Source: Squalus acanthias (lineage: Eukaryota). From it: 64,000 bases of DNA. The stretch spans positions 75,642,001 to 75,706,000 of the forward strand of contig CM059432.1 in the NCBI GenBank assembly GCA_030390025.1, in the 5' to 3' direction. Below, in pieces: positions 1,547 through 57,994 of this stretch. Within the stretch, counting starts at the first letter, position 1; each line of letters begins with the position of its first letter. The notes beneath the pieces were generated by a model. The model made no database searches. It was not told the origin of the DNA and worked only from the letters and a program-made list of their open reading frames with translations. Position numbers and translations under genes: made by a program.

Positions 1547-4500
1547 TTTTTTATTATTTGTTTATGGGATGTGGGCGTCACTGGCAAGGCCAGCATTTAT
1601 TGCCCATCCTTAATTGCCACCTTCTTGAAACGCTGCAGTCCATGTGGTGAAGGTACTCCCACAGTGCTATTAGGGAGGGAGTTCCAGGATTTTGACCCAG
1701 CGATGATGAAGGAACGGCGATATACTTCTAAGTCAGGATAGTGTGTGACTTGGAGGGGAACTTGGAGGTGGTGGTGTTCCCATGCATCTGCTGCCCTTGT
1801 CCTTCTAGGTGGAAGAGGTCGCGGGTTTGGGAGGTGCTGCCGAAGAAGCCATGGCGAGTTGCTGCAGTGCCTCTTGTAGATGGTACATACTGCAGCCACG
1901 GTACGCCGGTGGTGGAGGGAGTGAATGTTTAAGGTGGTGGATGGGGTGCCAATCAAGCGGGCTGTTTTGTACTGGATGGTGTCGAGCTTCTTGAGTGTTG
2001 TTAGAGCTGCACTCATCCAGGCAAGTGGAGAGTATTCCATCACACTCCTTACTTGTGCCTTGTAGATGGTGGAAAGGCTTTGGGGAGTCAGGAGGTGAGA
2101 CACTCGCCGCAGAATACCTAGCCTCTGACCTGCTCTTGTTGCCACAGTATTTATGTGGCTGGTCCAGTTAAGTTTCTGGTTAATGGTGACCCCCCAGGAT
2201 GTTGATAGTGGGGGATTCGGCGATGGTAATGCCATTGAATGTCATAGAAACATAGAATCTAGGAGCAGGAGTAGGCCATTCGGCCCGTCGAGCCTGCTCC
2301 GCCATTCAATACGATCATGGCTGATCATCCAAATCCAGTACCCTGTCCCTGCTTTAATCCCCACAGTACACATATCCCACCCTACCCCCGTAACCCCACG
2401 TATTTAATTCCCCCAACATATCCCATCCTATCCCCATAACCCCACATATTTAATCCCCCCTAACACTAAGGGTCAATTTATCATAGCCAAATCAACCTAA
2501 CCCACACATTTTTGGACTGTGGGAGGAAACCGGAGTACCCGGAGGAAACCCACGCAGACACGGGGAGAATGTGCAAACTCCACACAGACATGTCATGGGG
2601 AGGTGGTTAGACTCTCGCTTGTTGGAGATAGTCATTGCCTGGCACTTCTGTGGTGCGAATGTTACCTGCCCCTTATCAGCCCAAGCCTGAACATCAGGTC
2701 TTGTTGCATGCGGGCATGGACTGCTTCATTATCTGTGGAGTTGTGAATGGTGCTGAACACTTTGCAGTCATCAGCGAACATCCCCATTTCTGACCTTATG
2801 TTGGAGGGAAGGTTATTGATGAAGCAGCTGAAGATGGTTGGGCCTAGGACACTGCCCTGAGGAACTCCTGCAGCGTTGTCCTGGGGCTGTGATGATTGAC
2901 CTTCAACCACCACAACCATCTTCCTTTGTGCTAGATATGACTCCAGCCAGTGAAGCGTTTTCCCCCTGATTCCCATTGACTTCAGTTTTACTAGGGCTCC
3001 TTGATGCCAGACTCGGTCAAATGCTGCCTTGATGTCAAGGGCAGTCACTCTCACCTCACCTCTGGAATTCAGCTCCTTTGTCCATGTTTGGACAAAGGCT
3101 GTAATGAGGTCGGGAGCCGAGTGGTCTTGGTGGAACCCAAACTGAGCAAGTGCCGCTTGATAGCACTGTCGATGACACCTTCCTTCACTTTGCTGATGAT
3201 TGAGAGTAGACTGATGGGGCGGTAATTGGCCAGGTTGGATTTGTCCTGCTTTTTGTGGACAGGACATACCTGGGCAGTTTTCCACATTGTCGGATAGATG
3301 CCAGTGTTGTAGCTATACTGGAACAGCGGCTAGTTCTGGAGCACAAGTCTTCAGCACGATAGCCGGGATGTTGTCGGGGCCCATAGCCTTTGCTGTATCC
3401 AGTGCGCTCAGCCGTTTCTTGATATCACGTGGAGTGAATCGAATTGGCTGAAGAATGGCTTCTGTGATGATGGGGACCTCGGGAGTAGGCCAATATGGAT
3501 TATCCACTCGGCACTTCTGGCTGAAGTTGGTTGCAAACGCTTCAGCCTTGTCTTTTGCACTCACGTGCTGGGCTCCACCATCACTGAGGATGGGGATATT
3601 CTTGGAGCCTCCTCCCGTTAGTTGTTTAATGGTCCACCACCATTCACGACTGCAGAGCTTTGATCTGATCCGTTGATTGTGGGATCGCTTAGCCCTGTCT
3701 ACAGCATGCTGCTTCCGTTTTTGAGCATGCATGTAGTCCTGTGTTGCAGCTTCCTCAGGTTGGCACCTCATTTTTAGGCATGCTCTTTTACACTCATTGT
3801 TGGTCCCCTGGCTTGGTGGTAATGGTAGAGTGAGGGATATGCCGGGCCATGAGGTTACAGATTGTGGTGGAATACAATTCTGCTGCTGCTGATAACCCAC
3901 AGCGCCTCATGGATGCCCAGTTTTGAGCTGCTAGATTTGTTCTGAATCTATCCCATTTAGCACAGTGGTAGTGCCACACAACACGATGGAGGGTGTTCTC
4001 AGTGTGAAGACGGGGACTTTGTCTCCACAATGACTGTGCGGTGGTCACTGCTGCCATGGACAGATGCATCTGCGACAGGTAGATTGGTGAGGATGAGGTC
4101 AAGTAGGTTTTTCCCTCTTGTTGGTTCACTCACCACCTGTCGCAGGCCCAGACTGGCAGTTATATCCTTCAGGACTCGGCCAGTAGTGGTGATGGACATT
4201 GAAGTCCTCCACCCAGAATACATTCTGTGCCCTTGCTACCCTCAGTGCTTCTTCCAAGTGGTGTTCAACATGGAGGAGTACTGATTCATCAACTGAGGGA
4301 GGGCAGTAGGTGGTAATCAGCAAGAGGTTTCCTTGCCCATGCTTGACCTAAAGCCATGAGACTTCATGGGGTCCGGAGTCAATGTTGAGGACTCACAGGG
4401 CCACTCCTTCCCGACTGTATACCACTGTGCCACCACCCCTGGTGGGTCTGTCCTGCTGGTGGGACAGGACATACCCAGGGATGGTGATGGAGAAGTTCAG

Positions 4501-4902
4501 GACATTGACTGAAAGGTATGATTCTGTGCGTATGACTATGTCAGGCTGTTGCTTGACTAGTCTGTGGGACAGCTCTCCCAATTTTGGCACAAGTCCCCAG
4601 ATGTTGGTGAGGAGGACTTTACAGGGTTGACTGGACTGGGTGTGCCGCTGCCGTGTCCATAGCCGGTGCTGAGGTCGATGCCGGGTGGTCCGTGCAGTTT
4701 CATTCTTATTATTTTGTTTCATAGCAGTTAGTTACAACTGAGTAACTTGCTAGACCATTTCGGAGGGCAGTTAAGAGTCAACCACATTACTGATACTAGC
4801 TTTTTATTCCAGATTTATTTAATTAACTGAATTTAAATTCCCCAGCTGCCGTGGCCTCTAGGATTATTAGCCCAGTGACATTACCACTACGCTACCGTTC
4901 CC
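1547..4902 (-). mobile_element. Full-length but decayed single-ORF LINE (APE endonuclease + RT, CR1-group-like) with tRNA-derived 5' head
   Basis: EN motifs LLTNIWGL, PDIVI.TES and DRPTRGGG (4393-4722). RT motifs NYRPISLLS, LDIKAAFDRVWHQG, GVPQGSVLGP and FADD (2662-3287). C-terminus at 1597-2235. A-rich 3' tail at 1547. The 5' end reads GGGAACGGTAGCGTAGTGG from 4902. Confidence 0.92.
2246..2589 (-). mobile_element. 5'-truncated V-SINE (HE1-like) with CR1-type tail, inserted in the LINE
   Basis: V-domain GGTTTCCTCCGGGTACTCCGGTTTCCTCCCACAGTCCAAA on -, CR1-type tail GGCCGAATGGCCTACTCCTGCTCC. TSD ATGTCAT at 2239-2245 and 2590-2596. Confidence 0.85.
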
Positions 4903-14372: not shown

Positions 14373-14419
14373 TAAATTTCTGCTAGTAGAGCCAATTTTG
14401 TTTACTTTTCTGCACTAAT

Positions 14420-14810
14420 TTTTTTTTAAATTCATTCACGGGATGTGGGTGTCACTGGCAAGGCCAGAATATATTGCCCAATGCTAATTGCCCTTAACTG
14501 AGTGGCTTGTTAGGCCATTTCAGAGGGCAGTTAAGAGTCAACCACATTGCTGTGGGTCACACATGTAGGCCAGACCAGCTAAGGGTATGAAATTTCTACA
14601 GGGCATTAGAGAACCAGATGGGTTTTTATGATAATCATTTCATGGTCACCATTACTGATACTAGTTTTATTTTATTCCAGAATTATTAATTAACTCAATT
14701 TAAACTCCACAGCTGTTGTGGTGGGATTTGAACTCAAGTCCCTCAGCATTATTAGTCCAGGTCTCTGGGTTGCTAAGTCCAGTAACATAACTACTACGCT
14801 ACTGAACCCC
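14420..14810 (-). mobile_element. tRNA-derived SINE made of the 5' UTR and 3' UTR of the tRNA-headed LINE
   Basis: A-box-like TAGCGTAGTAG and B-box GAGTTCAAATCCC on -. 14496-14810 matches LINE 5' ends (4735-4902, 37362-37590). 14420-14495 matches LINE 3' tails (1547-1617, 17345-17417, 35098-35167). Confidence 0.88.
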
Positions 14811-17344: not shown

Positions 17345-17972
17345 TTTTTTTTATTCGCTTATGGGATCTGGGCGTCGCTGGCAAGGCCAGCATTTATTGC
17401 CCATCCCTAGTTGGCCTTGAGAAGGCAGTGGTGAGCCGCCTTCTTAAACTAGTGCAGTCCGTGTGGTGAAGGTACTCCCACAGTGCTGTTAGGTAGGGAG
17501 TTCCAGGATTTTGACCCAGCGACGATGAAGGATTGGCGATATACTTCCAAGTCAGGATTGTGTGACTTGGAGTGGAACTTGGAGGTGGTGGTGTTCCCAT
17601 GCGCCTGCTGCCCTTGCCCTTCTAGGTGGAAGAGGTCGCGGGTTTGGGAGGTGCTGCCGAAGAAGCCTTGATGAGTTGCTGCAGTGCATCTTGTAGATGA
17701 TACACACTGCAGCCACGGTACGCTGGTGGTGGAGGGAGTGAATGTTTAAGGTGGTGGATGGGGTGCCAATCAAGTGGGCTGTTTTGTCTTGGATGGTGTC
17801 GAGCTTCTTGAGTGTTGTTGGAGCTGCAATCATCCAGGCAAGTGGAGAGTATTCCATCACACTCCTGACTTGTGCCTTGTAGAAGGTGGAAAGTCTTTGG
17901 GGAGTCAGGTGGTGAGACACTCGCTGCAGAATACCTAGCCTCTGACCTGCTCTTGTTGCCACATTATTTATG
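17345..17972 (-). mobile_element. 3' fragment of the tRNA-headed LINE family
   Basis: Near-identical to 1547-2155; RAGQRLGIL and YKAQVRSVMEYSPLAWM. Confidence 0.9.
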
Positions 17973-18240: not shown

Positions 18241-18765
18241 TCTGACACATCCACCTCCCCCCACAACTGTTTGCTTTAATAGGGATATAGCTACAGTGTG
18301 AATTTACTGAAGAAAAAAATGTGCAAATTGCTAAGACTGTGGGCCTCTTAAAATGATATGCACCTGTCAGACCTGAATCTAACTGCTGCCTCCAAGCTCT
18401 GCACACGAGCAATAAAATTCAGTGACGTACTGCCCAAATGGCAGTTAAATTTTTAATTTTAAGTAGATAGCTGCTTAATTTCTTAAGATTCTTAAGAATT
18501 TCTGAAGATTCACTTTGCACTGCAGCTAATGTGAAGTCAAAGTGATGATGAACTACATCATCGAGGTGATGTCACATATGATCTGACCAACATCACTCTG
18601 AGTTATATTACACTACTGTTTGTGTTGCTGTTTTGGCCTTAAATCAAAACTATGTTGTATAACTGCCCTGTTAAAACAATAATGGGCTTGTTTTCTTTAC
18701 ATTAACTAGTGACTAGGAAAAAATGCTTTTTATCTGAAGAAATTCTAGCAAAATTTTGTCTTTCG

Positions 18766-19051
18766 GATGAAACGTTAAACCGTCTGCTCTCTCAGGTGGA
18801 CGTTAAAGATCACATGGCACTATTCGAAGAAGAGCAGGGGAGTTATCCCCGGTATCGTGGCCAATATATATCCCTCAATCAACATCACTAAAACAGATTA
18901 TTTGGTCATTATCACATTGCTGTTTGTGGGAGCTTGCTGCGTGCAAATTGGCTGCCACGTTTCCTACATTACAACAGTGACTACACTTCAAAAGTATTGG
19001 AATGTCCGGTGGTCGTGAAAGGCGCTATATAAATGCAAATCTTTCTTTCTT
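18766..19051 (+). mobile_element. 5'-truncated Deu-domain SINE
   Basis: AAAGATCACATGGCACTATTCGAAGAAGAGCAGGGGAG...GGCGCTATATAAATGCAA(TCTT)n; matches 38136-38458. Confidence 0.85.
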
Positions 19052-20807
19052 CAAAACAATTTTTTTATAGACCAACCATATTAAGTTTGTATTTGCGGTG
19101 CTAGAAGAAATAGCTGAGACCAATTTTTTTCATCCGATGAGGGGATTTAAAATAACATTTTTTAGAGACTATAGATTTTCCAAATCAATGGAATTGGGGG
19201 TAGCTGCGTCTGCAAGCTGCGCATTTAGAGAACCTGCGGCATGCTGCCTTTGATTTTTCAACCATTTATTTTAATGAACAGAAAATCATTGTTAAGACGC
19301 CCACAGTTTCCCAATATCCATTCCTGATGTGCATGACCAGCATGCAAGGTGACCCACTAGTAGCGCACATTCATAAATTATAATTTTATTACATTTCATT
19401 TGGAGGTGCAGTTATTATTTATTTCATACTGTTACATGCCACACACACAATGACATTTCAATGTTAACTTTGTTTCTACAACCATATTTATACTTAATAT
19501 ATGAAAAAGATCTACACTGTCGATTTTGATTAATTTATAATTTTACACTTCAAACTTTTTCTAGCATGATAAATATAAACAAACTTGACAGTATTTAGGT
19601 TCAAGCACACAACACCTTTTCTGCTAGTTAGTGCCTTAAATGTGAAAGCACTCGAGGCTCACACAGCCCACTAGCATTGTCTGTCATGCCTGAGAATCGT
19701 TTGCTACGAATATGAAAGGACTGTTATACAGACCCACTATAACATTTGTCCAGTCAGCAAGTCATTAAGTCCAAATTGAAAGTCTTTTGATGTATCAGAA
19801 AGTGTCTGGAAGTGGCAGTGTCTCCCTAAAAGCTTTGTGCTTAAAAATCCACAAAAGTAACCAGTGTACACAGATGGTGCAGATCTGTGGCCCACAGGAG
19901 AAGGGTTGTTCACTTGGTGTCTCCCCATATTAGAGGAAGTGTCGCTATTGATGGATGATGTCTCTCCACTCTGGGGGAGGGGTAGTCACAGAAGGCAGAA
20001 TAAGTGATCTGGGTCGAGGAAACAGCCCTTTAGGATTTTCCATAGGGACCTATTAAAAACCTATTTTCCTCAGCCTCACTTTGGGGAATTTGAAACTGAT
20101 GTTGGGAAATGTAGTTTTTAATAAGGCAATTTTTCATGTGAAATATGTGAAAAATTATGATGTCATGAAATACTCAATATAAAACAATACAATACTTCAT
20201 TTCCAACAAAAATATAAAACACAAAAGTGCTGGAAATACACCACACAAAATACAGAGAAATCTGACAAAGAGGGGCTAATTTTCAACTTCACCCATTGTA
20301 GAACCTGCCAATTTTCACCCCTTTGATTTCAGTTGAAATGTTAACCTGCCATCTCATTTTAGAGCTGATGGAGCTGCTATATATATATAGGAGAGCTTAA
20401 CTAGCCTAACAGCAAAGCACACCAATGGCACACAATGTATTTGTTTTGTAGAGAGGTAATAATTTTATAGCAGATTAGTAGTAATCAAATGATTTTTCAA
20501 AGCCTGCTGGAGATGGAATGGCCATCAAGGCCTCTCAGAACAGCATTCCATGAACACAGTGTTCCACCTTCGAGCATGGGATGACTGTCTACTGTCAGCT
20601 GATAGTTGTAAAGAAACTTGTGACCTAGGATTTTTTGTTAGCCCTGCACCACATGCCTCTTTTGTGGCTAAAGGTGGTGATTTAGAGGCAAGAAGTCATC
20701 ATGGGGGGAAGGGTACATTTGGAAAAATAGACAGAACAAATCAAAATAAATCAATCTTTTGTTTCTATATACCCAGCTGGCTCGAGTTCAGTGTTATGCT
20801 GAGGAAC

Positions 20808-23153: not shown

Positions 23154-25276
23154 GTGGGCGAAATTCGGTTGGTTAGCGCCTGGCGGCAGGAACGACAGCT
23201 ACAGGGGGACAGTGCACAGTCGGCTGGGAGCTTGGGGAGCACTATTTAATGGCGCGCACGTCCTACGTTCTCCCATCAGCAAACTATTCTGCCTATGCAC
23301 GCTGAGAGGAAGAGAAGCGTTTGGAGGGACTTCACGCTTCCACACTTGAGGGACTATTGGTCGGCAGAGAAACTTATCAGTTTCTCATTTCTGTTACCTT
23401 TGCTGCAGCAACACTTTGAAGATTTAATGGGGGCTCCTTGCTCGAGCTGTGTGAGCGGCTGCAGCTCTGCCTGCCCGCCTCCCATGCGCTGCTGCTCCCT
23501 CCTGTTGTGGGCCAGCTTGGCCTGCAAGAAAAAGGACAACGTGTGAGTGATTCTGCAACCATGTGTTTGCCACATGTGCCTACCATAGTTGAATAGCTGT
23601 TAATGTCTGCGGGGTGTGAGATGTGGATGTGACATTTAGTAGGTGGGCATAGTTGGTGGTTGTGCTTTGGGGATATGGCAGTATATACAGTCTGTGCACA
23701 CAGTGGGGTTGGGATGGTGGAATGAAGAGGTTTTTGAAGCATGTACTCACCCTGACCACCCGAGTGAGGTCGTTGAACTTCTTCTGACACTGGGTGTTCA
23801 TTCTTCCCACCACACTTCTGGAGGAGACATACTGGGCCACCTCCCTCCACAGCCTTGAAAATTCCCGGGGCAATGGCCTCTTGTCAGTGTTTGGGAACAG
23901 CAGTCCCCATCGCCATTCGACTGCCACGACCAGAGCCTCCAATGCCTGGTCACTGAAGCAGGCTCTCTCCCTAGGCCCCCAATGCCTGGTCACTGAAGCA
24001 GGCTCTCTCCCTAGGCCGCCAATGCCTGGTCACTGAAGCAGGCTCTCTCCCGAGGCCCCCAGTGCCTGGTCACTGAAGCAGGCTCTCTCCCTAGGCCCCC
24101 AATGCCTGGTCACTGAAGCAGGCTCTCTCCCTAGGCCCCCAGTGCCTGGTCACTGAAGCAGGCTCTCTCCCTGGGCCTCCAATGCCTGGTCACTGAAGCA
24201 GGCTCTCTCCCTGGGCCTCCAGTGCCTGGTCACTGAAGCAGGTTCTCTCCCTGGGCCCCCAATGCCTGGTCACTGAAGCAGGCTCTCTCCCTAGGCCTCC
24301 AGTGCCTGGTCACTGAAGCAGGCTCTCTCCCTGGGCCCCCAATGCCTGGTCACTGAAGCAGGCTCTCTCCCTGGGCCCCCAATGCCTGGTCACTGAGGCA
24401 GGCTCTCTCCCTGGGCCCCCAGTGCCTGGTCACTGAAGCAGGCTCTCTCCCTGGCCCCCAGTGCCTGGTCACTGAAGCAGGCTCTCTCCCTGGGCCCCCA
24501 ATGCCTGGTCACTGAGGCGGTGGGCTCTCTCCCTGGGCCCCCAATGCCTGGTCACTGAAGCAGGCTCTCTCCCTGGGCCTCCAGTGCCTGGCCACTGAAG
24601 CAGGCTCTCTCCCTGGGCCTCCAGTGCCTGGCCACTGAAGCAGGCTCTCTCCCTGGGCCTCCAGTGCCTGGTCACTGAAGCAGGCTCTCTCCCTGGGCCC
24701 CCAGTGCCTGGTCACTGAAGCAGTGAGCTCTCTCCCTGGGCCTCGAATGCCTGGTCACTGAAGCAGGCTCTCTCCCTGGGCCTCCAGTGCCTGGTCACTG
24801 AAGCAGGCTCTCTCCCTGGGCCCCCAATGCCTGGTCACTGAAGCAGGCTCTCTCCCTGGGTCTCCAATGCCTGGTCACTGAAGTGGTGGGCTCTCTCCCT
24901 GGGCCTCTGCAATGCCATCACTGTCTCAGTGCAAGGTTTGAGGCTCCCTCCAGGACCAGGTCACAAGCAGCAATGAGAAGGGTGCGGCTGTGCAGGATGC
25001 TTGAACCTCCCCTTTAAGAACTGGTAGGTGCCGCCGGTATGTCTGATTAGTTGTGATTCACAGCCCCTGGCCTTGGGTAGCGCTCTGAGGCAGCGCCCCG
25101 CTCCCCGACGTTAGCGCCCTAAATGGGGTGTGTGGCACTTGATTTAGTGCTGCAGTCACCTCCAGGGGCGTTGGAGGAGAATATCGCAGAGTCCGGCGAT
25201 AATTCTCGCCAGGTGTTAATGGTTGCGCCCGGCCAATGTTAGCGCCCCAAAATGGACGATACCGAATTTCTCCCCC
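23154..25276. mobile_element. Internally deleted Harbinger containing a minisatellite
   Basis: TIRs GTGGGCGAAATTCGGT and GGGGGAGAAATTCGGT, TSD GAG. Myb exons on - (FSDQALEALV...WREVAQYVS...QCQKKFNDL; AKLAHNRREQQRMGGG). Confidence 0.9.
23936..24907. repeat. 40-bp minisatellite, about 24 units
   Basis: Unit (A/C)A(A/G)TGCCTGGTCACTGAAGCAGGCTCTCTCCCT(A/G)GGCC(C/T)C in head-to-tail array, with one 39-bp and three 43-bp variants. Confidence 0.97.
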
Positions 25277-29321: not shown

Positions 29322-30388
29322 GGCCGTAATGTTCCCAGTCCCGAGCGTGCAGGGTTGGGGGCGGGTCAGCAGTAAAAATCGCGGAAATTGCCAGCGCTTC
29401 GGTAACCCGCCCTCATCCCACCGACTTCCGCATTTAAATCGTGCGCGTTTCCCAGCCACCACGGACCCGCTCGGGAGAGGCGGGCAACCTCATTGAAGTA
29501 CTTAAATACGGACACTTAAGAGGCTTTTTAACATCAGGTTTGGCTTTAACTTCTTGAGCACTGAATTCACGCACCTCGGGAACCTCACCTGTGAAGGGAA
29601 GGCGGAAGCTCAGTGGCCATTGTGCGAGTTTATTAAGTGACAGCTGGAAAAAGCATATAAATACACACACATTACACCTGCTTCCTTGCCTAAGGGAAAG
29701 GTTCTTGCTGACTCCATTTTGTGCAGAGATTTAGCTGTCAGCAGTTTGCTGGTCATTTCTGCAACCTCGGAAGCCACTCTCACCACATTGCTAGTCACTG
29801 TCAGAACATTGAGGGATTGTGCCTCTGATCGCCACTTTACCTGCCATCTATTAGATCAGCATGCTTATGCTGTATCACCTTGGACCACAAAATTGGATGA
29901 AGGTGAGCCCCAGCACTAACACCAGCCACACCAGCAGTAGTAGCCACAACACCAGCAGCAGCAGCAACTACAACAGCAGCCTTCTCCTCAACGACCTGAT
30001 GCTACACAGGAGAGAGGGGATCAGCATAGGGCTGCACCGTGCCGGAGGCGATACCCACAACACAAGGTATACAGGCAGAGGATGAGCTTCCTCAACATGA
30101 CTGAGCAGCAGTGCTTCAGGAGGCTCAGGCTATCGCGCCAGGTCGTCGCAGACATTTGTAGTTTGCTGGAACAAGACCTGCTGCCCAGAGGACCTGGTGG
30201 ACATGCCTTACCAGTGGCTGCCAAAGTCACCACCACCCTCAACCTCTTTGCCTCAGGCTCCTTCCAGGGATCTGCAGCAGACATTTGCAGGATCTCGCAG
30301 TCGGCCGCCCACAGTTGCATCACCCAGGTGACCGATGCTATTTTTGACAAGTCAGCCAATTATGTCAACTTTGCCACTGATGAAGCCA
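29322..30388 (+). mobile_element. 5' part of a Harbinger (family of 55958-59867), truncated
   Basis: Left end matches 55958 onward. Transposase [19 protein letters not shown]...FASGSFQG...VNFATDEA, then abrupt break. Confidence 0.9.
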
Positions 30389-34555: not shown

Positions 34556-34615
34556 ATTTTCTACATTCAGGGATCCAAGCCAGGAGCACAGCCTGGATCC
34601 CTGAATGTAGAAAAT
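34556..34615. repeat. Perfect 22-bp inverted repeat (hairpin)
   Basis: ATTTTCTACATTCAGGGATCCA, 16-nt spacer, TGGATCCCTGAATGTAGAAAAT. Confidence 0.95.
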
Positions 34616-34618
34616 GCT

Positions 34619-34903
34619 CAGATAATCTGTTTTAGTGATGTTGGTTGAGAGCTACAGATTGGCCAGGATAACTGGGGAGAACTCTCCTGCTCTTCTTCGG
34701 AATAGTGCCATGGAATCTTTTATATCTATCTGAGAGGGAAGACAGGGTATCGGTTTAACATCTTGTCCGAAAGACAGCACCTCCGGCAGTGCAGCACTCC
34801 CTCAGTCAGCCTAGATTTTGTGCTCAAGTCTCTGGAGTGGGACTTGAACCCACAATCTTCTGACTCAGAAGTGAGAGCTCTACCCACTGATCCACAGTTG
34901 GCA
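34619..34903 (-). mobile_element. Deu-domain SINE, 3'-truncated
   Basis: tRNA head TGGATCAGTGGG...GGTTCAAGTCCC on -, body matches 37990-38290. Confidence 0.85.
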
Positions 34904-34904
34904 C

Positions 34905-37590
34905 GGAAGGTGGTGGTGGGCCTTCTCCTTAAACCACTGTAATCTTTGTTGTAATGGTGCTCCTACAATGGCATTAGGTAGGAAATTCCATGGTCGCTGG
35001 GTCAAAATCCTGGAACTCCCTACCGAACAGCATTGTGGGAGTACCTTCACCACATGGACTGCAGCGGTTCAAGAAGAAGGCTCACCACCACTTTCTCAAG
35101 GGTAATTAGGGATGGGCAATAAATGCTGGCCTTGCCAGCATCGCCCACGTCTTGAAAATTAAAAAAATACTGACCCAGCGATGATGAAGGAATGATGGTC
35201 AGTATATGCCCAAGTGTGTGACTTGAGGGAAACTTGCAAGTGACGGTGTTCCCATGATCTTACTGCCTTTATCCTTCTTGGCAGTTGCAGAGCTGGGAGG
35301 TATTATCATAGTAAGCTTAATGAGTTGCTGTAGTGCATCTTGTAGATTATACATATTGCAGACACATGGTGGAGGGGGTGGATATTGAGCTTAGTGTCCA
35401 GGGCACTGATCAAGTGGACTGCTCTGTCCTGGATGGTGTTGAGCTCTTTGAGTATTATGGCTGCACCTAACTGGGCGCGTATTCCATCACACTTCTGACT
35501 TGAGCCTCATAGATGGTGGAGAGGCTTTGAGGGGTCAGGACGTGAGTCAACCGTTGCAGAGTACCCAGCATCTGCCCTGCTCCTGTAGCCACAGTGTTGA
35601 TATGGCTGGTCCAGTTCAGCTTCTAGTCAATGGTGACCCTCAGGATGTTGATAGTTGGGGACTTAGTGGTTGAAGGTGGAGGGCTTTAATTTGGCATTCT
35701 CTTGTTGATGGTCATAGCCTGGCCCGAATGTTACCTGCCTCTTGTCAGCCCAATCCTGGATGTTGTCCAGGTCCTGCTGTAGATGGGCATGGCCTGCTGC
35801 ATTATTGGAGGAGTTCTAATGGGAACTGAGCACTGTGGAATCATCAGTGAAGAGTTCTAATCCTGACCTTGTCCTGACCGAGGGAAAGTTATTGATGAAA
35901 CAGCTGAAAATGGTTCGACCAAGAGCACTGCCATTAGAAACATCTACATCAATGTCCTGGGGCTGCAATGATTGGGCTCCAGCAGCCACGACCATCTTCC
36001 TGTATGTTAGGTATGACTTCAGCCACTTTATCTCAGTTTTGCTAGGTCTCCTTGGTACCATACTCGGTTGACTGCTGCATTGATGTCAAAGGCAGCTACT
36101 CTGCCTCTCCTCTGGAATTCAGCTCTTGCATCCATGTTTGGATCAAGGTTGTAATAAATTCAGCAGCTTAACGGTTCTGGTGGACCCTGAACTGAGCACC
36201 AGTGAGCAGGTTATTGGTGAGTAGATGCCACTTGATGGTGCTATTGGTTACTTCCTCCATCGCTTTGCTGATGGTTAGGAGGAGGATGCTAGGGTGATAT
36301 TTGGCCAGGTTAGATTTGTCCTGCTTTTCTGTAGATAGGATATAGCAGGGCAATTTACCACATTGTCAAGCAAATGCCAGTATCATAGCTGCCTTGGAAT
36401 AGCTTGGTTAGGGATTGCCTAGTTCTGGCATACTTCAACACTACAGCCCAGATGTTATCAGGACCCAGTGCCTTTACTACGTCTTATATTCTCAGGTGCT
36501 TCTTAATATCATGTGGAGTGAATCAAATTGGCTGGTTAATGGCATCTATGATAGTGGGGACCCCAGGAGGAGGCCAAGTAGGATCATCCACTCAGCACTT
36601 TTGGCTGAAGACACTTTGCAAGCATGTCAGCCTTTTCCCGTAGACTCACGTATTGGGCTCCATGACGGTTGAGGATGGAGATATTCATGAATCCTCACCT
36701 TCCCGTTAGTTGCCTGGTTGTCCAGCACCATTTTTGATTTGGATGTAGTAGGGCTACAGAGATTTGCTCTGATCCATTGGTCATGGGACTGCTTAGCTCT
36801 GTTTGTAGCCTGGGGCTTTTGGTGTTTTGCATGCAGGTAACCTTGTGTTGTAGTTTCACTAGATTGGTCGCTCATTCTAAGGTATGCCTAGTGCTGCTGA
36901 TGGCACGCCCTTCTGTACTCTGGATTGAGTCAGGGTTCATCTCTAGTCTAATGTAAATGGATGAGTAAGGGATGTGCTGGGTCATGAAATTACAGCTTGT
37001 GGTGGTGTATAATTCTGCTGCTGTTGATGGCCCACAGTGCTTCATGGATGCCTAGATTTGGGTAGCTGAATCTGTCGCTACCTCTAATGGGTCTATTCTG
37101 CCATTGGTGACTGGGTACTCCCAAGTAATATTATGGAGGACTCTGGGATATTGGCTGATAGATATGATTCTAAGAGAACAACTGTGTCAGACTGTTGCTC
37201 GATTAGTCTCTGGGACAGCTCTCCCAGCTTGGTAAGAGGGCTTTGCAGCGTTGACTGGGTTAGAATTTCCGGAGTCTTGTCTTGATTTAATGCCTAGGTT
37301 GTTGCTGATAGGTTTGTCCGATAATTCTCTTATTGTTCCAATAATGTAGAAACTGTTTTACAACTGAATGGCTTGCTGCAGAGGGCAATAAGAGTCGACC
37401 AGATATTGAGTCACATGTAGTTCAGACCAAGTAGGGGTGGCAGGTTCCCTTCCCTGAAGGACATTATTGTATCAGTTGGGGTTTTACGACAATCAAACAG
37501 TCCCCATGCTAATTTTTCTGGTGCTAGCCTACAGATTACCAGAATTATCAAATTTAGTTTCCCAACATCCCATGGTGGGAGATGAACTTA
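34905..37590 (-). mobile_element. Second, older copy of the tRNA-headed single-ORF LINE
   Basis: Collinear with 1547-4902 (KQDKSNLAKY, TIFSCFINN). 5' region 37362-37590 matches the SINE body and B-box. Probable A-box remnant beyond the MITE at 38685-38718. Confidence 0.85.
34995..35167 (+). mobile_element. Younger 3' fragment of the same LINE inserted antisense into the older copy
   Basis: AGSKSWNSLPNSIVGVPSPHGLQRFKKKAHHHFLKGN*, then 3' UTR and A-tail. Confidence 0.85.
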
Positions 37591-37592
37591 TT

Positions 37593-38682
37593 GGCCTTGA
37601 TTTAACACCAACCCCCCACCCCCAACCCCCCGCCGCACCCCTTGACAGGCGGGAGTGGGTCGGGAGGGTTGGTTAAATATCAGGATCAGGCAATGTGACC
37701 CCCTTCCCACCTCTTTAAATTTTGAAGTGCAGAAATCAGGCAATGTTTGAGGCTCCCGCAAAAGGCAGGCTAGGGCCTAATTAACATACAAAAGTCACGG
37801 CCTGATGACATATTCGGAGGTGCGACTTACATTTCACAGTAAGTGAGGGGGAGGCCCAAACTGAGGGATTCCTGGCAGCTGATCCGAGGCGGGAGCTGCC
37901 CCCTCTCCAAGGGAAGTGGCTCTTTTAGCATTCCTTGTGGGCCTTGTGGAGCAGGAGTTCTCACCCCAGGCACCACCAGGAAGCCTTCAGTGTCAGCTGT
38001 GGCTCAGTTGGTAGCACTCTCGCCTCTGAGCCAGAAGGTTGTAGGTCCTGGGTACCACTCCAGAGACTTGAGCACAAAAATCTAGGCTGACACTCCAGTG
38101 CAGTACTGAGGGAGTGCTGCACTGTCAGAGGTGCCGTCTTTCAGATTAGCCATTAAACCAAGGGCCCGTCTGCTCCCTCAAGTGGATGTAAAAGATCCCA
38201 AGGCACTATTTTGAAGACGAGCGGGGGAGTTATCCCAGGTGTCCTGGCCAATATTTATCCCTTAATCAACATCACTTAAAAAATAGGTTATCTGGTCATT
38301 ATCGCATTGCTGTTTTTGGGAGCTTGCTGTGCGCAAATTGGCTGCCGCGCTTCCTATATTACAGCAGTGACTACACTTCAAAAATTACTTCATTGTCTGT
38401 AAAGTGCTTTGGGACGTCCGGTGGTCGTGAAAGGTGCTATATAAATGCAAGTCTTTTTTCATCCTCCTCCAGCCTCAATCGCCAGCCTCCCCACAGCCCT
38501 ACCGATCTCAAACCTCCGCCCAGCCCTCCTGCCGTTAGTGTTCCCTCCTGGCTTCCGGGCGGGAGGCAGCCTTACAATATGCTAATGAGGACCTGCTGTT
38601 AAGATTGGCAGATCCTCTACGTCCCCAGCCTGGCCGTGTTCCCTATGCCACTGCGCTTCCTCGCACCCTCCCCGTAAATATC
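37593..38682. mobile_element. Harbinger-type MITE interrupted by a Deu-SINE
   Basis: Starts GGCCTTGATTTAAC; shared GGAGCAGGAG motif and GC-rich subterminal boxes. Right end degenerate. Confidence 0.55.
37990..38458 (+). mobile_element. Full-length tRNA-derived Deu-domain SINE (SacSINE1-like)
   Basis: A-box TGGCTCAGTTGG, Deu core GATGTAAAAGATCCCAAGGCACTATT...GGTGTCCTGGCCAATATTTATCCC, tail GCTATATAAATGCAAGTCTTT. Confidence 0.88.
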
Positions 38683-43455: not shown

Positions 43456-44457
43456 CTAAACAAATCTGACCAAAATGAGTGCATCCCTTGCATCCCGGCC
43501 AGCAATGTGCTCGCGTGCTGCTGCCGCTGGTTGATGCGCACCTGCAAGCTGTTCGTTGTCGCGCTCCTCCTCCTCCTCATCTGAGGAGGCTATGTGATGA
43601 GTCACTTGTTCCTCAGGCATCTGCAAGCCACGATGCTGTGCCATGTTGTAAAGTACACAGCAGACCACGACGATTCTGGAGACCCTAGCTGCTGAGTACT
43701 GCAGGGCTCCACCTGATCTATCAAGGCATCTGAAGCGCATCTTCAGCAAGCCGATGGTTTGTTCGATTATGTATCTGGTGGAAATGTGGCTGGAGTTGTA
43801 GCGCTCCTCAGCTTCGTTGGATGGGCTCATCAACGGCGTCATTAGCCACGTCTTCAGGGGATAGCCCTTGTCTCCAAGTAGCCATCCAAAAAGTTGGTCT
43901 GGCGGACTGAAGAGCGGAGGCACACTAGGCTGGCGCAGGATGAAGGAGTCATGGCAACTGTCAGGGTACTTGGCGCAAGCATGCAAAATTTCCTTCTTGT
44001 GGTCACACACCAGCAGTACGTTGAGGGAGTGGAAGCCCTTGCAGTTAACAAAAATACCTGGATTGTGATGGGGTGCCTTAAGGGCCACATGTGTGCAGTC
44101 AATGACACCCTGCACCCTTGAAAAGCCTGCCAGTTTGTCAAACCCAGCCGCACGCGCGGTTACACTGGCTTGATCCTTGGAGAAATTGATGTAATTGTGA
44201 GCGATGGCAAAGAGGGCATCGGTTACCTGCGTGATGCAAGTGTGTGTGGCCGCCTGGGAGACGCCGCTGATGTCTGCTGCTAATCCCTGGAATGAGCCTG
44301 AAGCAAAAAAGTTGAGTGCGGTGGTGACTTTGACGGCCACTGGTAAGGGGTATCCACCCGCTCCTCTGGGCTCCAGGTCTTGTTGCAGCATTGCACAGAT
44401 GTCACCCACTACCTCTCGCGAAAGTCGGAGCCTCCTTTGGCACTGCTGCTCAGTCAT
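43456..44457 (-). CDS. Harbinger DDE transposase (HARBI1-like), 333-aa open core; N-terminus 44450-44731 is offset by one base
   Basis: [23 protein letters not shown] and [16 protein letters not shown] are all intact; acidic C-terminus. Confidence 0.93.
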
Positions 44458-45461
44458 ATTGAGGTAGCTGATCCTCTGTCTGTAGACCCTGTTTTGGGGG
44501 GTATCTCCTGCGCCGACGGGCTTCCATACACTGGCGCCTTCTGGCCTGTGCAGCTTCAGGTGGGTGAGCAGCAGCTTGGAGCTCCTGCTGTTGCTCCTGC
44601 AGTTGGTGCTGCTGTTGTTCAGGGTTCTGCTGCTGCCGCGGCTGGTCTTCGTCCGAATCTGATGTCCAGGAGGAAAGGAAATAAATAGTTCCCATTCTTC
44701 TGGTATATACCTCAGTTGAGGAAGCGCTCATTCAAGTTGGGGAGAGGGGTTTCCCAGGAGGTCACACTGGAGATGGGTGTCAGGCTCCAAACTTCCAGAA
44801 CATTGAGTAGGCCTGCTAAATGTTCCCCCAGACCTGAGACAACAAACTGCAAATGATGATTGCTGAAAACTCCTTTTTAATGGGGGAGCTGCAGCTGTTA
44901 GTAAGCAGTCAACTTGTGATGCCGCCAGGATTCACTGGCATGTTCCAGAGGAGACGTGCAGCATGTGGGAAAAGTGTTAAAATCAGAAAGGCCTCTCAAA
45001 AATGGGATAATAGAGGCTAGTAACTGATTGTTAAGGGCCTTAAGGGCCTATCCCGCCTCTTGGAGGCGGGATGGAAATGGGGTCAGAAAACACGCATGTG
45101 GGAAAATTGCTCGGAGGCGGGATGGAGGCGGGATCGGGCCCGCCTGCCATTTTTGGCGATTTTAACAACTCCCACGCCTCCAATCCCGCCTCCTCGGGCC
45201 TGGCAAAATCCAGCCCAAGGTGTGCATTCCATCTTGGCACTACTTACCTTGCAGTATGGTTTTTTGTTATGTGTACACCCTTGTAAATAAAGTTGTGGAA
45301 AATCCCTATGCACTTATCAAGATGACAGTGTTTGTTTTTGTTAAAAATAAACACCTTTCCAGTTGCATGTGCAGTTTGTTAGCATAATGTTATCAGTACT
45401 ATACTGCTGCTGTTGGGATTTCAATTTGCAGTTGAATGAAAAAGAGCCTTGAAAACCCATA

Positions 45462-49812: not shown

Positions 49813-50988
49813 GCTTTCGATAAGGTCCCGCATAAGAGATTAGCATGCAAAGTTAAAGCACATGGGATTGGGGGTAAGGTACTGATTTGGATAGAGAACT
49901 GGTTGGCAGACAGGAAGCAAAGAGTTGGAATAAACGGTTCTTTTTCCGAGTGGCAGGCAGTGACTAGTGGGGTACCACAGGGATCGGTGCTAGGACCCCA
50001 GTTATTCACAATATATATTAATGATCTAGACGAGGGAACTAGATGTAATATCTCTAAGTTTGCAGACGACACAAAGCTGGGTGGGCGTGTGTGCTGTGAG
50101 GAGAATGCAGAGAAACTCCAGTATGATTTGGACAGGTTGGGTGATTGGGCAGATGCATGGCAGATGCAGTATAATGTGGATAAATGCAAGGTTATCCACT
50201 TTGGTGGCAAAAACAGGAAGACAGATTATTATCTGAATGGCAATAGATTGGGAAAAGGGGAAGTGCAACGAGATCTGGGAGTCCTTGTGCACCAGTCGCT
50301 GAAGGTAAGCATGCAGGTGCAGCAGGCGGTTAAGAAGGCAAATGGTATGTTGGCCTTCATAGCGAGAGCATTCGAGTACAGGAGCAAGGTTGTCTTGCTG
50401 CAGTTATACAAGGCCTTGGTGAGACCACACCTTAAGTATTGTGTGCAGTTTTGGTCACCTTATCTGAGGAAGGATGTTCTTGCCATGGAGGGAGTGCAGC
50501 AAAGATTTACCAGACTGATACCTGGGATGGCAGGAAAAACGTATGAAGAGAGATTGGCTCGATTAGGCTTATATTCGCTAGAGTTTAGAAGAATGAGAGG
50601 GGATCTCATTGAAACTTATAAAATTCTAACAGGACTAGACAGACTAGATGCAGGAAGGATGTTCCCGATGGCGGGGGAGTCCAGAACCAGAGGTCACAGT
50701 CTAAGGATAAGGGGTAAGCCATTTAGGACTGAGATGAGGAGGAATTTCTTCACCCAGAGAGTGGTGAACCTGTGGAATTCTCTACCACAGAAGGCAGTTG
50801 AGGCCAATTCATTAAATATATTCAAGAAGGAGAGAGATATATTTCTTAATACTAAAGGGATCAAGGGATATGGGGAGAAAGCAGGGACAGGGTACTGAAT
50901 TTGGATGATCAGCCATGATCTCATTAAATGGCGGAGCAGGCTCGAGGGGCCGAATGGCCTACTCCTGCTCCTATCTTCTATGCTTCTA
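49805..50988 (+). mobile_element. Young 5'-truncated CR1 LINE with open RT C-terminal frame
   Basis: FQKAFDKVPH...SGVPQGSVLGPQLF...FADDTKL, open to 50898 (331-aa ORF). Conserved 3' tail. Candidate TSD TGATCT. Confidence 0.95.
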
Positions 50989-51034
50989 TGATCTCCTTGT
51001 ATAGTCAGGTTGGAGAGCGCGAGAGGCGGCAGAG

Positions 51035-53689: not shown

Positions 53690-55920
53690 ATAAAAAAATA
53701 AAGGAAGAGTGAAAGAGTGCATAGGACCACTCTAGATTGAAGGAGGTAGTCTAATTTTAGAAGATCAAGATATGACAGAGATAATAAATAAATATTTTGC
53801 ATCTTTTTTTTACAAATGATGGTGCAAGAGAATGTAGGTTTACTAATGGAACAATTGTTAGAGATAGCTTTAGAAGAGGAATGGATTCTGGAAAAATAGC
53901 ACAACTCAAGTGGGTTAAGTCACTGCTCCCTGGTGGCATACACCTTAGGTTGTTGAAAGAAGTCAAAGAGGATTGTTTGCCCACAACTTGTCAGTCCTCT
54001 TTAAACATACACATTGTATCATGGGACTGAAGCCAATCTTACACCTTTGTTCAAGAATGGAGCGAAGGGTAAACCAAGTAACTATAGACCAGTTAGTCTA
54101 ATGTCAGTTGTGAACTAACTCTTGGAATACATAATTCAAAATGAAATTAGTGAGCATTTAGAATTGCAGGGTTTAATCAAGGACAGATGGCACTGATTTG
54201 TTGAAGGCAAGTAATGTTTGACAATATTAATATAGTTTTTCTGAAGAAGTGACTGATATCATGCAGTGGATGTACCTGGATCTTTAGACGGTCTTCAGTA
54301 AGGTGCCTCACAAGAGGCTTGTTAGAAAAATTCAAGTGTATGGTGTAAAAGGAAATGTCGCAGTAGGGATAGAAAGCTGGTTGATGGACTCGAATAAATG
54401 TGTTCGGGTAAATGGGCATTTATTGGATTGGAGAAGCATTGAAGTGATGTATCGCAGGGGTCAGTGTTGAAACAACTTTTGTTGTCAGTATATATTAATG
54501 ATTTGGACTTGGGAACACAATCTTAAACCAGAAATCCCAAGTGAATGATCCTTCTCGGCCTCCTCCTGAGAGCCCCACCATCACAGTGGCCAGTCTTCAG
54601 CCAATTCAATTAATTCCTCGTGATATCAAGAAACGGCTGAGCACACTGGACACAGCAAAGACTATGAGCCCCAACAACATCTCGGCTATGGTGCTGAAGG
54701 CCTGTGCTCCAGAACTAGCCAGGCCTCTAACCAAGCTGCTCCAGTACAGCTACAACACAGTCATGTGGAAAATTGCCTAGCTTTGTCCTGTCCACAAAAA
54801 GCAGGACAAATCCAATCCACCCAATTACTGCCTCATCAGCCTACTCTCAATCATCAGCAAAGCGAAGGAAGGTGTTGTCGACAGTGCTGTCAAGCATCAC
54901 TTATTCACCAATAACCTGCTCACTGATGTTCAGTTTGGGTTCTGCCAGGACCACTCGGCTCCAGACTTCATTACAGCCTTGGTCCAAACAAGAGCTGAAT
55001 TCGAGAGTTGAGAGTGACTACCCTTGACATTAAGGCAGATTTCGACTAAATATGGAACCAGGGAGCCTTAATAAAACTGAAGTCGATGGGAGCCAGGTGG
55101 AAAACTTGCCAGCGGCTGGAGTGATACCTGGCACAAAGGTTGTGGTTGTAGGAGGACAATCATCTTAGCTCCAGAACATTGCTGCAGGAGTTCCTCAGGG
55201 CAGCGTCCTAGGCTCAACCATCTTCAGCTGCTTCATCAATGACCTTCTCTCCATCATAAGGCCAGAAGTGGGGCTGTCTACTAATGATTGCACAGTGTTC
55301 AGCTCCATTTGCAATTCCTCAGAAAATGACCTGGACAATATCCAAGCTTAGGCTGTTAAGTGGCAAATAACATTCGTGCCACACAAGTGCCAGGCAATAA
55401 CCACCTCCCAAAGCCTCCCCACCACCAAAAGGCACAAGTCAGGAGTGTGATGGAATATTTGCCTGGATGGAGGCTCGACACCAGGTTGATTCCATGGATT
55501 GGAAACTATAGTTAAAAGGAAAGATTTAAGATGTTGGGATTATTTCCACTGGAGCAAAGAAGGCTAAGAAGAGATTTTATAAAGGTTTTAAAAATTAGTA
55601 TTTTGATACAGTGAATACAGATTTGTTTAGTTGGGGAATCAGTAGCAAGAGGTCATTAATTTTAAATTGTTACGAGGACAAAGGTTACGAGAAATTCCTT
55701 TATGCAGAAGATTGTTGGTTTTGCCACAGGGAGTGGTTGAGGCAAAGACCATTGCATCTTTTAAGGGAAAGTTGTATAAATATTTGAAGCAGAGGAAGAT
55801 ACAGAGCTATGGGGAAAACATGGAGCACTGGGATTAGTTTGTGATTGCTCTAGCAAAGATCTGGCACAGACACATCGAGCCAAATGATATCCTTTAGTTC
55901 TGCAAATCTCTATGGTTGTA
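53690..55920 (+). mobile_element. Old CR1 LINE relic interrupted by another LINE
   Basis: KPSNYRPVSLMS and QGSVL remnants (54060-54520); 3' region resumes at 55485-55920. Confidence 0.75.
54530..55482 (+). mobile_element. Internal RT fragment of the tRNA-headed LINE family
   Basis: PRDIKKRLSTLDTAKTMSPNNISAMVLKACAPELARPL and GVPQGSVLG; collinear with 2040-3510 reversed, with deletions. Confidence 0.88.
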
Positions 55921-56504
55921 TGGAGTACCCATTTGCTTCACATGAACCTGAAACCTTAGCCGGAATTTTCCCGTTGCTGAGCGTGCAGGTTTGGGGGCGG
56001 TTCAGCATTAAAAATCCCGGAAATTGCGAGCGTGTCAGGAACCCGCCATCATCCCGCCACCTCGCGCATTTAACTTGGGCAGCTTTGAAGGCGCGACAAG
56101 GACCCGATCGGCAGAGGTGGGCGACCTCATTGAAGTCATTAAATGCTTGTTGAGAGACCCTTAAGAGGGTTTTTAATGCCAGCTTTTGACTTTTACTGCA
56201 GGAATACGGAATTCACACAGCTCGGGTACCTTGCCTGTGAAGGGGAGGCGGAAGCTCCGTGGCCATTGGTGAGTCCATTCATTGAGAGCTGGGAAAAGCA
56301 CATAAATACTGCAACATTACACCTCATTCTTGTCTCATGGAAAGGCTCTCGCTGACTCCATTTTGTCCACAGATTTTGGTGTCAGCAGTTTGCAGGTCAT
56401 TTCTGAAACTTCGGAAGCCACTCTCACCACATTGCTACTCACTTTCACAACGTTGAGGGATTGTGCCTCTGATCTTCACTCTACCTGCCATCGACTACAT
56501 CAGC

Positions 56505-57727
56505 ATGGGTGCCGCTTATACTGTCTCACCTTGGTCCTCAGAATCGGACCAAGGTGAGCCCCACCACCAACAACAACAGCCACATCAGCAGCAGCAACCA
56601 CAACAGCAGCTTTCTCCTCAACAACCTGATGCTCCACAGGAGAGAGGGGTGCACCACAGGGCTGCAGTGTGCCGGAGTCGATACCCCCAATATAGGGTAT
56701 ACAGGCAGAGGATGAGCTTCCTGGACATGACTGAGCAGCAGTGCTTTAGGACACTCAGGCTATCGCGCCAGGTTGTTGCAGATATTTGTAGCTTGCTGGA
56801 ACAAGACCTGCTGCCCAGAGGTCCTGGTGGACACTCCTTACCAGTGGCTGTCAAAGTCACCACAGCCCTCAACTTCTTCGCCTCAGGCTCCTTCCAGGGA
56901 TCTGCAGCAGACATTTGCAAGATCTCGCAGTCGGCCATCCACAGATGCATCACCCAGGTGATCGATGCCATGTTTCACAGGCACTTATGTACACTTTGCC
57001 ACTGATGAAGCCAGTGTTACTGAGCGGGTGCTCGGCTTTGCGGCTTTGGCTGACTTCCCACAGGTGCAGGGTGTCATCGACTGCACACATGTGGCATTCA
57101 AGGCACCCCATCATCACCCAGTAGTGTTTGTGAACCACAAGGGCTTCCACTCCCTCAAAGTGCAGATCATCTGCAACCATAAAAAGATCATTATGCATGT
57201 GTGCGCCAGATTTCCTGGCAGCTGTCCTGACTCTTTCGTGCTGCGCCAGTCCACCCTCCCTCAGCTCTTCGCACCTCCAAACAGACTTACCGGCTGGCTG
57301 CTTGGAGACAAGGGCTATCCACTGAAGACGTGGCTCATGACACCCCTGAGAACGCCAAGTACTGAGGCCGAGGAGAGATATAATGACAGCCACATCTCCA
57401 CCAGATGTGTCATAGAGCAAGCAATAGGTATGCTGATGCTTTAGATGCCTTGACAGATCTGGAGGAGCCCTTCAGTACGCACTAACCAGGGTATCCAGAA
57501 TCATCGTCGTTTGCTGCATGCTGCACAACATAACGCAGCAGCGAGGATTGGAGCTGCAGGAAGAGCAAGGTGCAGAACGCACAGCCTCTTCAGAGGAGGA
57601 GGAGGAGAAGGAGGAGCAGGTGGAAAACGAGGGGAAGGAGGAGGAGGAGGAACCTGAGGTGGAGATGGCACCAGCAGCGGTGCACATTACGGTCCAGGAT
57701 GGCCTCATCATGGCCATATTTACTTAA
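56505..57727 (+). pseudogene. Harbinger transposase with two frameshifts
   Basis: ORF pieces 56463-57005, 56965-57444 and 57518-57727 carrying [16 protein letters not shown] and VIEQAIG. Confidence 0.92.
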
Positions 57728-57994
57728 CTTGCTCCAATGCAGCCACAAGGCCGCCACATGCTGTACTAAGTCCCCCCCCCCACCCGCCCCCCCCCCCCAA
57801 TAACACCATAAAGCAGTCCTACAATGACTAAGCCATTCCTCTCACCTAAACCCCAGGTTCTCGAGGTTAAGTAATGTCTCTCCATTGACAAAGCCACTTC
57901 CCAGGTAGCAGGCAAGTATTGAAAAGATTTATGTGTGTCAACAAAATAACTGAAACTTAACACTAACATTTGTTCATACACCCATGTGCAGACC

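Follow-up and report, generated by a model that had tools for sequence, protein, structure and literature searches.

A LINE family represented in the 64,000-nt window of Squalus acanthias DNA, the whole stretch analysed here, combines a tRNA-like head, a structured 5′ region, an endonuclease–reverse transcriptase ORF and a tail. These parts move as one unit, and their arrangement is the same in a young and an old subfamily. In the family majority the sense strand is free of runs of four T, and the endonuclease is encoded without an AUG start. Judging from these sequence patterns, Pol III probably transcribes the master copies from the A and B boxes of the head through a terminator-free body.

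A single-ORF LINE of the CR1 group

Copy 1 of the family occupies positions 1547–4902 of the window, with the minus strand as its sense strand. Searches of the 3.7-Gb genome, in which about 30,000 first-look candidates arose and the best 40 were scored per search, returned many near-full-length copies of the same family. The majority sequence built from 55 young copies is 3279 nt long and contains 19.4% T, and the young copies diverge from it by 1.8–5.1%. It carries one open frame of about 963–965 codons and no ORF1. The corresponding ORF of copy 1 (1612–4725, minus strand) is broken; it comprises an Arg-rich extension, an APE endonuclease and a reverse transcriptase (RT), and both PF14529 and PF00078 scored above the Pfam cut-off on the family protein. 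The copies are dispersed and 5′-truncated, with a shared 3′ end and an A-rich tail. The element is thus an APE-type non-LTR retrotransposon (LINE) with a single ORF, and belongs to the CR1 group. Its 3′ UTR and tail (1547–1611, minus strand), with AATAAA at 1601–1596 and an A-rich end, are common to the SINE described below. Copy 1 is dead: its B box is gone, little of its structured region is left, and it carries an insertion of ∼350 nt (2245–2589, minus strand), visible as an alignment gap. The insert is the 3′ part of a V-SINE-type element, so labelled from the V-domain motif as printed in the consulted part of the supplement to PMC4824008, and its CR1-type tail matches the CR1 at 50871–50991.

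A second, older subfamily is represented in the window by the copy at 35170–37588 (minus strand), which has the same head and ORF layout and differs by ∼25% from the young majority. When two older copies of the window served as queries, only young-family sequences came back, and the old subfamily was found through its own junction alone; it was sampled at 20 genomic places in addition to the window copy. Its majority covers 3019 of the 3279 positions and differs from the young majority by 12% overall and by 20% at third codon positions. The window also holds two 3′ fragments of the young family (17345–17972, minus strand, and 34989–35147, plus strand) and an internal fragment (54517–55457, plus strand) that is 10–17% diverged. 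The element, and the internal join that defines the SINE described below, are both present in sequencing runs (three contig sets that are RNA or guessed to be RNA, and possibly DNA, and one DNA read set), which show neither start site nor strand nor level.

Close fragments are labelled Heptranchias (82–89% identity) and Rhincodon (72%), so that this is a shark family. In an RT tree, the family protein grouped with lepidopteran, amphioxus and crustacean proteins (98/99 support), apart from the two-ORF CR1 of the same genome, to which it is 31% identical. The element is therefore not a member of the canonical two-ORF vertebrate CR1, as it has no ORF1 and lies on a separate branch. It resembles instead the single-ORF LINEs of the CR1 group, lepidopteran Zenon and bivalve CR1-Zenon, which likewise have one ORF with APE endonuclease and RT and no ORF1; the grouping is with a lepidopteran single-ORF protein, in a tree that held no named Zenon reference. 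It differs from such relatives in that most of them have an AUG and many TTTT. The cited passages of PMC6740152 describe Zenon as single-ORF and report neither tRNA homology nor a Pol III promoter at the 5′ end of the Zenon-derived Persaeus.

Depletion of T-runs on the sense strand

A sequence-only reading of the window had noticed that the sense strand of the family is nearly devoid of TTTT, the terminator of Pol III, and had proposed that the coding sequence was selected to be read through by this polymerase. Its counts were reproduced. Copy 1 contains no T4+ run between 1560 and 4902 on the sense strand, where A runs are common, as claimed (16 A4+ runs). TTTT is likewise missing from the fragments 17345–17972, 34995–35167 and 54530–55482 and from the SINE at 14416–14800, and the old copy (35170–37580) has one, at 35907–35910; these fragments share one master lineage and are not independent observations. 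The ordinary CR1 pieces of the window do carry sense TTTT (2 and 9 runs), and the expectation of roughly 4–6 runs was close to the mark: when the bases of copy 1, minus the insert, were shuffled, the mean was 4.2 with P(0) = 0.01. Among the 60 best-matching genomic stretches (3 of which repeat a place), 42 lack TTTT and the others have one or two.

The majority of the 55 young copies contains no TTTT, and no TVTTT. Across the whole element its triple runs number 7 for T compared with 45 for A, 52 for C and 38 for G. The old-subfamily majority also has no TTTT, with four TTT and two TVTTT, both of the latter at a depth of 4. TTTT density rises with the age of the copies, from 0.05 per kb in those less than 3% diverged through 0.18 and 0.30 to about 1.1 in those 20–40% diverged, and its absence is therefore a property of the masters. 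In the tails, T4+ precedes the A run in 30 of 151 cases and a single T in 77. These tail T-runs vary per copy and look post-insertional, and we do not take them as a terminator of the master.

How strong the depletion is depends on the null model. The probability of finding no TTTT in the young majority was 0.02 with base-composition shuffles and 0.25 with a first-order Markov null. Synonymous-codon shuffles of the ORF predict 1.6 TTTT against the zero seen (P = 0.17), so that TTTT alone does not stand out from its codon-shuffled controls. Broader measures do: the ORF has 5 TTT runs versus 11.1 expected under codon shuffles (p = 0.003), 1 stretch with four T in five nucleotides versus 5.5 (p = 0.011) and, counting TTTT and TVTTT together, 0 versus 3.2 (p = 0.023). 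Over the whole element the combined count is 0 versus 6.7 under base shuffles (p = 0.0007). TTTT and TVTTT are the minimal terminators measured for SINEs in the consulted part of PMC8466645. The A, C and G runs of the ORF agree with their shuffles, indicating that avoidance is specific to T, and at Phe codons TTC is preferred, as the sequence-only reading had suggested should be checked (TTT:TTC = 3:15).

Could the absence of TTTT be an accident of one ancestral sequence, with no bearing on mechanism? All copies share ancestors, and the codon and Markov nulls allow a zero count with probabilities of 0.17–0.25. Against this, the shortage extends to TTT, four-in-five T and TVTTT but not to runs of A, C or G, and the second subfamily is also without TTTT. 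We consider chance a very unlikely explanation.

For comparison with related elements, 160 loci were collected from host DNA in metagenomes and MAGs. The 122 with a long RT frame were used, and 38 were excluded because they had no open RT frame of 450+ aa or contained N. All 122 ORFs hold at least one TTTT, none is as TTT-poor as the family, and their summed TTTT count (2181) is close to the shuffle expectation (2177). Two depleted relatives, L273 (1 TTTT versus 8.5 expected) and L258 (4 versus 11.7), are both truncated at the 5′ end, where a head would lie. The clade-mate L222, whose 5′ end is cut off, has an AUG start, 20% T and 2.2% Phe, and contains one TTTT and five TTTT/TVTTT. Controls gave 9 TTTT at 21% T in a Tx1/L1-like ORF2 and 6 in a Harbinger-like ORF; the Tx1, RTE and Harbinger labels of the controls, and the esterase label for CR1 ORF1, are names we take to apply. 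The two-ORF CR1 of this genome, which has no head, shows depletion in its ORF2 as well, with TTTT at 3 versus 8.9 (p = 0.005) and TTTT/TVTTT at 9 versus 16.4, although it retains T6, T5 and T4 in ORF2 and T6–T8 in its 5′ repeats.

The partial depletion of a CR1 that has no tRNA head bears on an alternative in which Pol II is the polymerase, with the head used as or within a Pol II promoter, or with masters read through from host Pol II promoters. T-poverty would then reflect the low-T, low-Phe composition of the clade together with selection against U-rich splice and polyadenylation signals. Low Phe (about 2%) and low T in clade-mates that do have an AUG, the modest 1.6 TTTT predicted from the family's own codon usage and the single AATAAA at its 3′ end are all compatible with this explanation. 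The depth of the depletion speaks against it, being for TTT the deepest among the 123 ORFs. With the evidence from the 5′ end given below, we judge transcription by Pol II unlikely. As to transcription by Pol III, the T-specific depletion fits the proposed selection for read-through and adds modest weight to it. It is not independent proof, given the two-ORF CR1 and L222, and the earlier interpretation is thus supported in part.

The tRNA-like head and a derived SINE

The 5′ part of the tRNA-like head lies at 4853–4902 (minus strand), with the A box at 4894–4884. Copy 1 lacks majority nt 50–85, including the B box, and so could not use the promoter itself. Among 27 full-length copies the B box is identical in 24, and both boxes match the familiar consensus. 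The Rfam tRNA model scored 14.5 and 21.1 bits on intact heads, under its 29-bit cut-off, and ARAGORN found no tRNA in the window. An nhmmer search for head-like sequence in the loci of the 160 relatives found none (best E 1.1).

The 5′ ends were compared in 75 young copies in which the beginning of the endonuclease is present. As many as 44 reach nt 12 or earlier, a share inflated by the inclusion of the head in some 5′-end queries; 14 end inside the head, 6 later, and 11 are cut by the edge of the locus. The 75 copies have no shared alternative 5′ end. The clustering of 5′ ends at the tRNA +1 position, with the B box intact, argues against Pol II and is consistent with initiation by Pol III.

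A SINE at 14416–14809 (minus strand) contains the head and the structured region through the hairpin described below and then the tail, majority nt 1–325 being fused to 3216–3276; it has neither the GCU codon discussed in the following section nor the ORF. We infer that this SINE is an internal-deletion form of the LINE. Like tRNA-derived SINEs (SINE2), the family has a head with A and B boxes, a start at tRNA +1 and a LINE-type tail. It also recalls the T+ SINEs (B2, Dip and Ves) in its AATAAA near the end and in the longer T-runs that precede the A tail in the same 30 of 151 cases, a lengthening described for T+ SINEs in the cited passages of PMC8466645. Unlike SINE2 elements, the LINE encodes a 963-residue protein and measures 3.28 kb, and is short and non-coding only in the deletion form at 14416–14809. 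In the sections of PMC5786205 cited here, SINEs are said to be unable to encode protein and LINEs are treated as Pol II transcripts.

An open reading frame without an AUG start

Met first occurs in the ORF at residue 282, downstream of the endonuclease motifs, and the nine upstream AUGs open frames of 1–48 codons only. The endonuclease therefore has no AUG start, whereas a Met precedes the endonuclease motif in 27 of 33 relatives. A capped Pol II transcript would have to pass these nine AUGs, as well as two AATAAA in the head, which is a further point against transcription by Pol II.

When the young majority is set against the old, change of the coding type is seen from a GCU codon onwards (4723–4725, minus strand), which is in frame with the ORF and lies 37 codons before the endonuclease motif. 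Over the 36 codons from GCU, 9 changes are synonymous and 12 are not, compared with 1:18 and 2:17 in the other frames, and the first three changes after GCU are all synonymous. An additional base separates the loop of the adjacent hairpin from GCU in 10 of 13 old copies, and in the young family a stop lies in frame just upstream of GCU, so that the frame does not continue 5′ of this codon. What is new here is the AUG-less endonuclease and, just before the point where coding-type conservation starts, a hairpin whose anticodon, AGC, can read GCU.

A candidate IRES with an anticodon-arm-like hairpin

Copy 1 keeps a remnant of the structured 5′ region at 4738–4854 (minus strand), without majority nt 156–268. 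Within it lies a hairpin (4738–4763, minus strand) shaped, by the usual rules for anticodon loops, like a tRNA anticodon arm. Its 7-nt loop CUAGCAA (4753–4747), exact in 38 of 63 young copies, presents the anticodon AGC, which can read the GCU codon just downstream, and the hairpin is a candidate PKI. When the upstream 155 nt were shuffled 20,000 times, 5 shuffles produced an anticodon-arm hairpin able to read a codon at −1, 0 or +1, in a test defined after the hairpin had been seen. Three of five PKI-like pairs are possible in the young family and four to five in the old, in which the two bases before GCU add one or two pairs and in the young family none. Further upstream, three nested helices make up a proposed hairpin, two pairs of which differ in both bases when the subfamilies are compared.

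Across 17 decayed copies, covariation of the proposed structure was not above shuffles (307 of 500 reached the score), the anticodon–codon helix showed no covariation, and RNAalifold predicted no pairs in the decayed copies. The head has an MFE z-score of −0.56. In a rival helix the same bases pair with an upstream GGUUG. Rfam IRES models had no match in the family at E ≤ 10, and searches of viral contigs with the protein, the alignment and the head motif had none either. The head holds two further anticodon-like hairpins, and the third, the candidate PKI, may be a duplication relic.

The arrangement is similar to that of type 6 (dicistrovirus IGR) IRESs, 6a–6f, which also place a non-AUG start beside an anticodon-arm mimic with a long irregular hairpin upstream, in a region of about 150 nt. 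According to the cited parts of PMC12221177 and PMC10275262, type 6 IRESs start mostly at GCU and also at ACA and ACU, ACA being common in type 6f. The candidate described here differs in lying in a genomic retroelement of a vertebrate and not in an RNA virus, and PKII, PKIII, SLIV, SLV and L1.1, motifs of type 6 IRESs, were not identified in its 5′ region. By analogy, translation from a factorless IRES with an anticodon mimic is a serious possibility, held with slightly more doubt than belief.

Alternatively, Pol III transcription may be right and the start of translation different, by scanning to a near-cognate codon, by re-initiation following a short upstream frame or by a frameshift out of the 48-codon frame that begins with AUG-358; the hairpin would then act as a recognition signal or derive from duplication of an anticodon arm. 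This would suit an anticodon–codon helix that lacks covariation and has only three pairs in the young family, and most young copies retain this AUG (majority nt 358). Other LINEs are known to re-initiate independently of an AUG, namely L1 and, as far as the consulted text goes, SART1. On the other hand, the old subfamily lacks AUG-358, three synonymous changes lie upstream of this AUG, and the near-cognate codons differ between the subfamilies, ACG in the young and ACA in the old. Such a start, which overlaps with the main reading as far as Pol III is concerned, seems to us rather unlikely, and we retain initiation at or near GCU as the working model.

A model for expression of the element

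In the proposed cycle, Pol III would start at the head and continue until it meets a T-run, the first one within or beyond the A tail. An internal terminator would remove the 3′ tail required for reverse transcription, so that masters acquiring one would die out; this loss may be the reason why T-runs are avoided. The RNA would have no m7G cap and would depend on cap-independent translation, for which a factorless IRES at GCU would provide an explanation. The 5′ structure would bind the ribosome, the anticodon-arm hairpin would pair with GCU in the manner of PKI, and decoding would begin from GCU or just after it. The resulting protein would copy its own RNA by target-primed reverse transcription and would mobilise the SINE too. 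The joint reading, that is a 3.3-kb uncapped Pol III RNA with a terminator-purged strand, a dicistrovirus-like IRES and a SINE that is the same RNA with its ORF deleted, is put forward only tentatively.

If true, a long-lived, high-copy family with a Pol III head and a protein-coding ORF would break the rule that LINEs are transcribed by Pol II and that SINEs are non-coding products of Pol III. It raises two questions: is Pol III able to express a protein of 960 residues in an animal, and do factorless type 6 IRESs occur outside RNA viruses? Should the joint reading hold, a vertebrate autonomous retrotransposon would skip the whole mRNA pathway, and the body of one SINE or more would be what is left of the IRES of a LINE. 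Where the conserved middle regions of SINEs come from and what they do is described as unknown in the consulted part of PMC11481361; derivation from the 5′ translation element of a LINE would be a concrete answer. The cited passages of PMC3894237 do no more than speculate about IGR IRESs in non-LTR elements, and the word 'retrotransposon' is absent from two recent IRES surveys. We found no description in the literature of a tRNA-headed coding LINE or of a type 6 IRES in a retroelement, and the consensus may already be catalogued in Repbase or Dfam.

Relation to shark SINEs with conserved middle regions

Another element close to the family is the shark DeuSINE SacSINE1, which is also tRNA-headed and has a conserved middle region. 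With SacSINE1 given as 463 bp, the LINE is about seven times as long. Compared by eye, the Deu alignment in the consulted part of the supplement to PMC7245038 is unlike the head of the family, and a Deu domain in the middle of the head was ruled out on this basis. The UCON3 domain was considered for the middle region as well, and its published alignment, again compared by eye, did not match. The Deu alignment does resemble, by eye, a different SINE of the window, at about 37971–38463.

TTTT runs in control and related LINEs

As a control from the same genome we considered a CR1 element whose 5' UTR tandem repeats and ORF1 lie at L371 841-1077 and L372 1-414, with ORF1 downstream of the repeat-bearing 5' UTR. 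Each of the ∼73-bp tandem repeat units carries a T6-T8 run, and despite this T-run-bearing 5' UTR, sense-strand TTTT, the Pol III terminator-type run, is depleted in ORF2 of the control (3 observed versus 8.9 expected from synonymous shuffles). In other animals, ORFs of related LINEs are strongly depleted as well: L273 4001-6035 has 1 run against 8.5 expected, and L258 3905-5987 has 4 against 11.7. Both loci are 5'-truncated and their ORFs contain ∼29% T. Copy 1 of the tRNA-headed LINE carries the 3' part of a V-SINE-type element, including a CR1 tail, as an insertion in the same orientation (window 2245-2589), and this insert too is free of TTTT on the copy 1 sense strand.

Bacterial MAGs contain, as host contamination, many eukaryotic LINEs that carry 2A-like NPGP motifs (L224, L226, L227, L229, L231, L233 and others).

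Structure of family copies and other repeats

In the young head the anticodon arm is duplicated in tandem (nt 26-66 of the majority sequence of young copies; for example, the L002 and L046 heads), and the loop CUAGCAA also occurs in the heads of the SINE and of several old copies. Three family copies on different contigs (L333, L335 and L343) share a breakpoint at majority position 2662, and a long tandem repeat adjoins their 5' ends; they are possibly duplicated segments.

A second SINE lies at window 37971-38463. Compared by eye, the published Deu domain matches its middle, and this SINE is probably SacSINE1-like; further copies lie near 18757-19052 and 34604-34918. Several copies of a transposase ORF that we take to be Harbinger/PIF-like (window 43456-44727, 1-1550, 29323-30388 and 55959-58118) served only as a control. 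A tandem array with a period of ∼80 bp occupies window 23935-24916. Elsewhere, L331, L332, L334, L339 and L340 represent a young, L1/Tx1-like family with two ORFs, in which ORF2 is intact at 1306 aa; among the matches listed, copy pairs are spaced ∼7.2 kb apart, which suggests tandem arrays.
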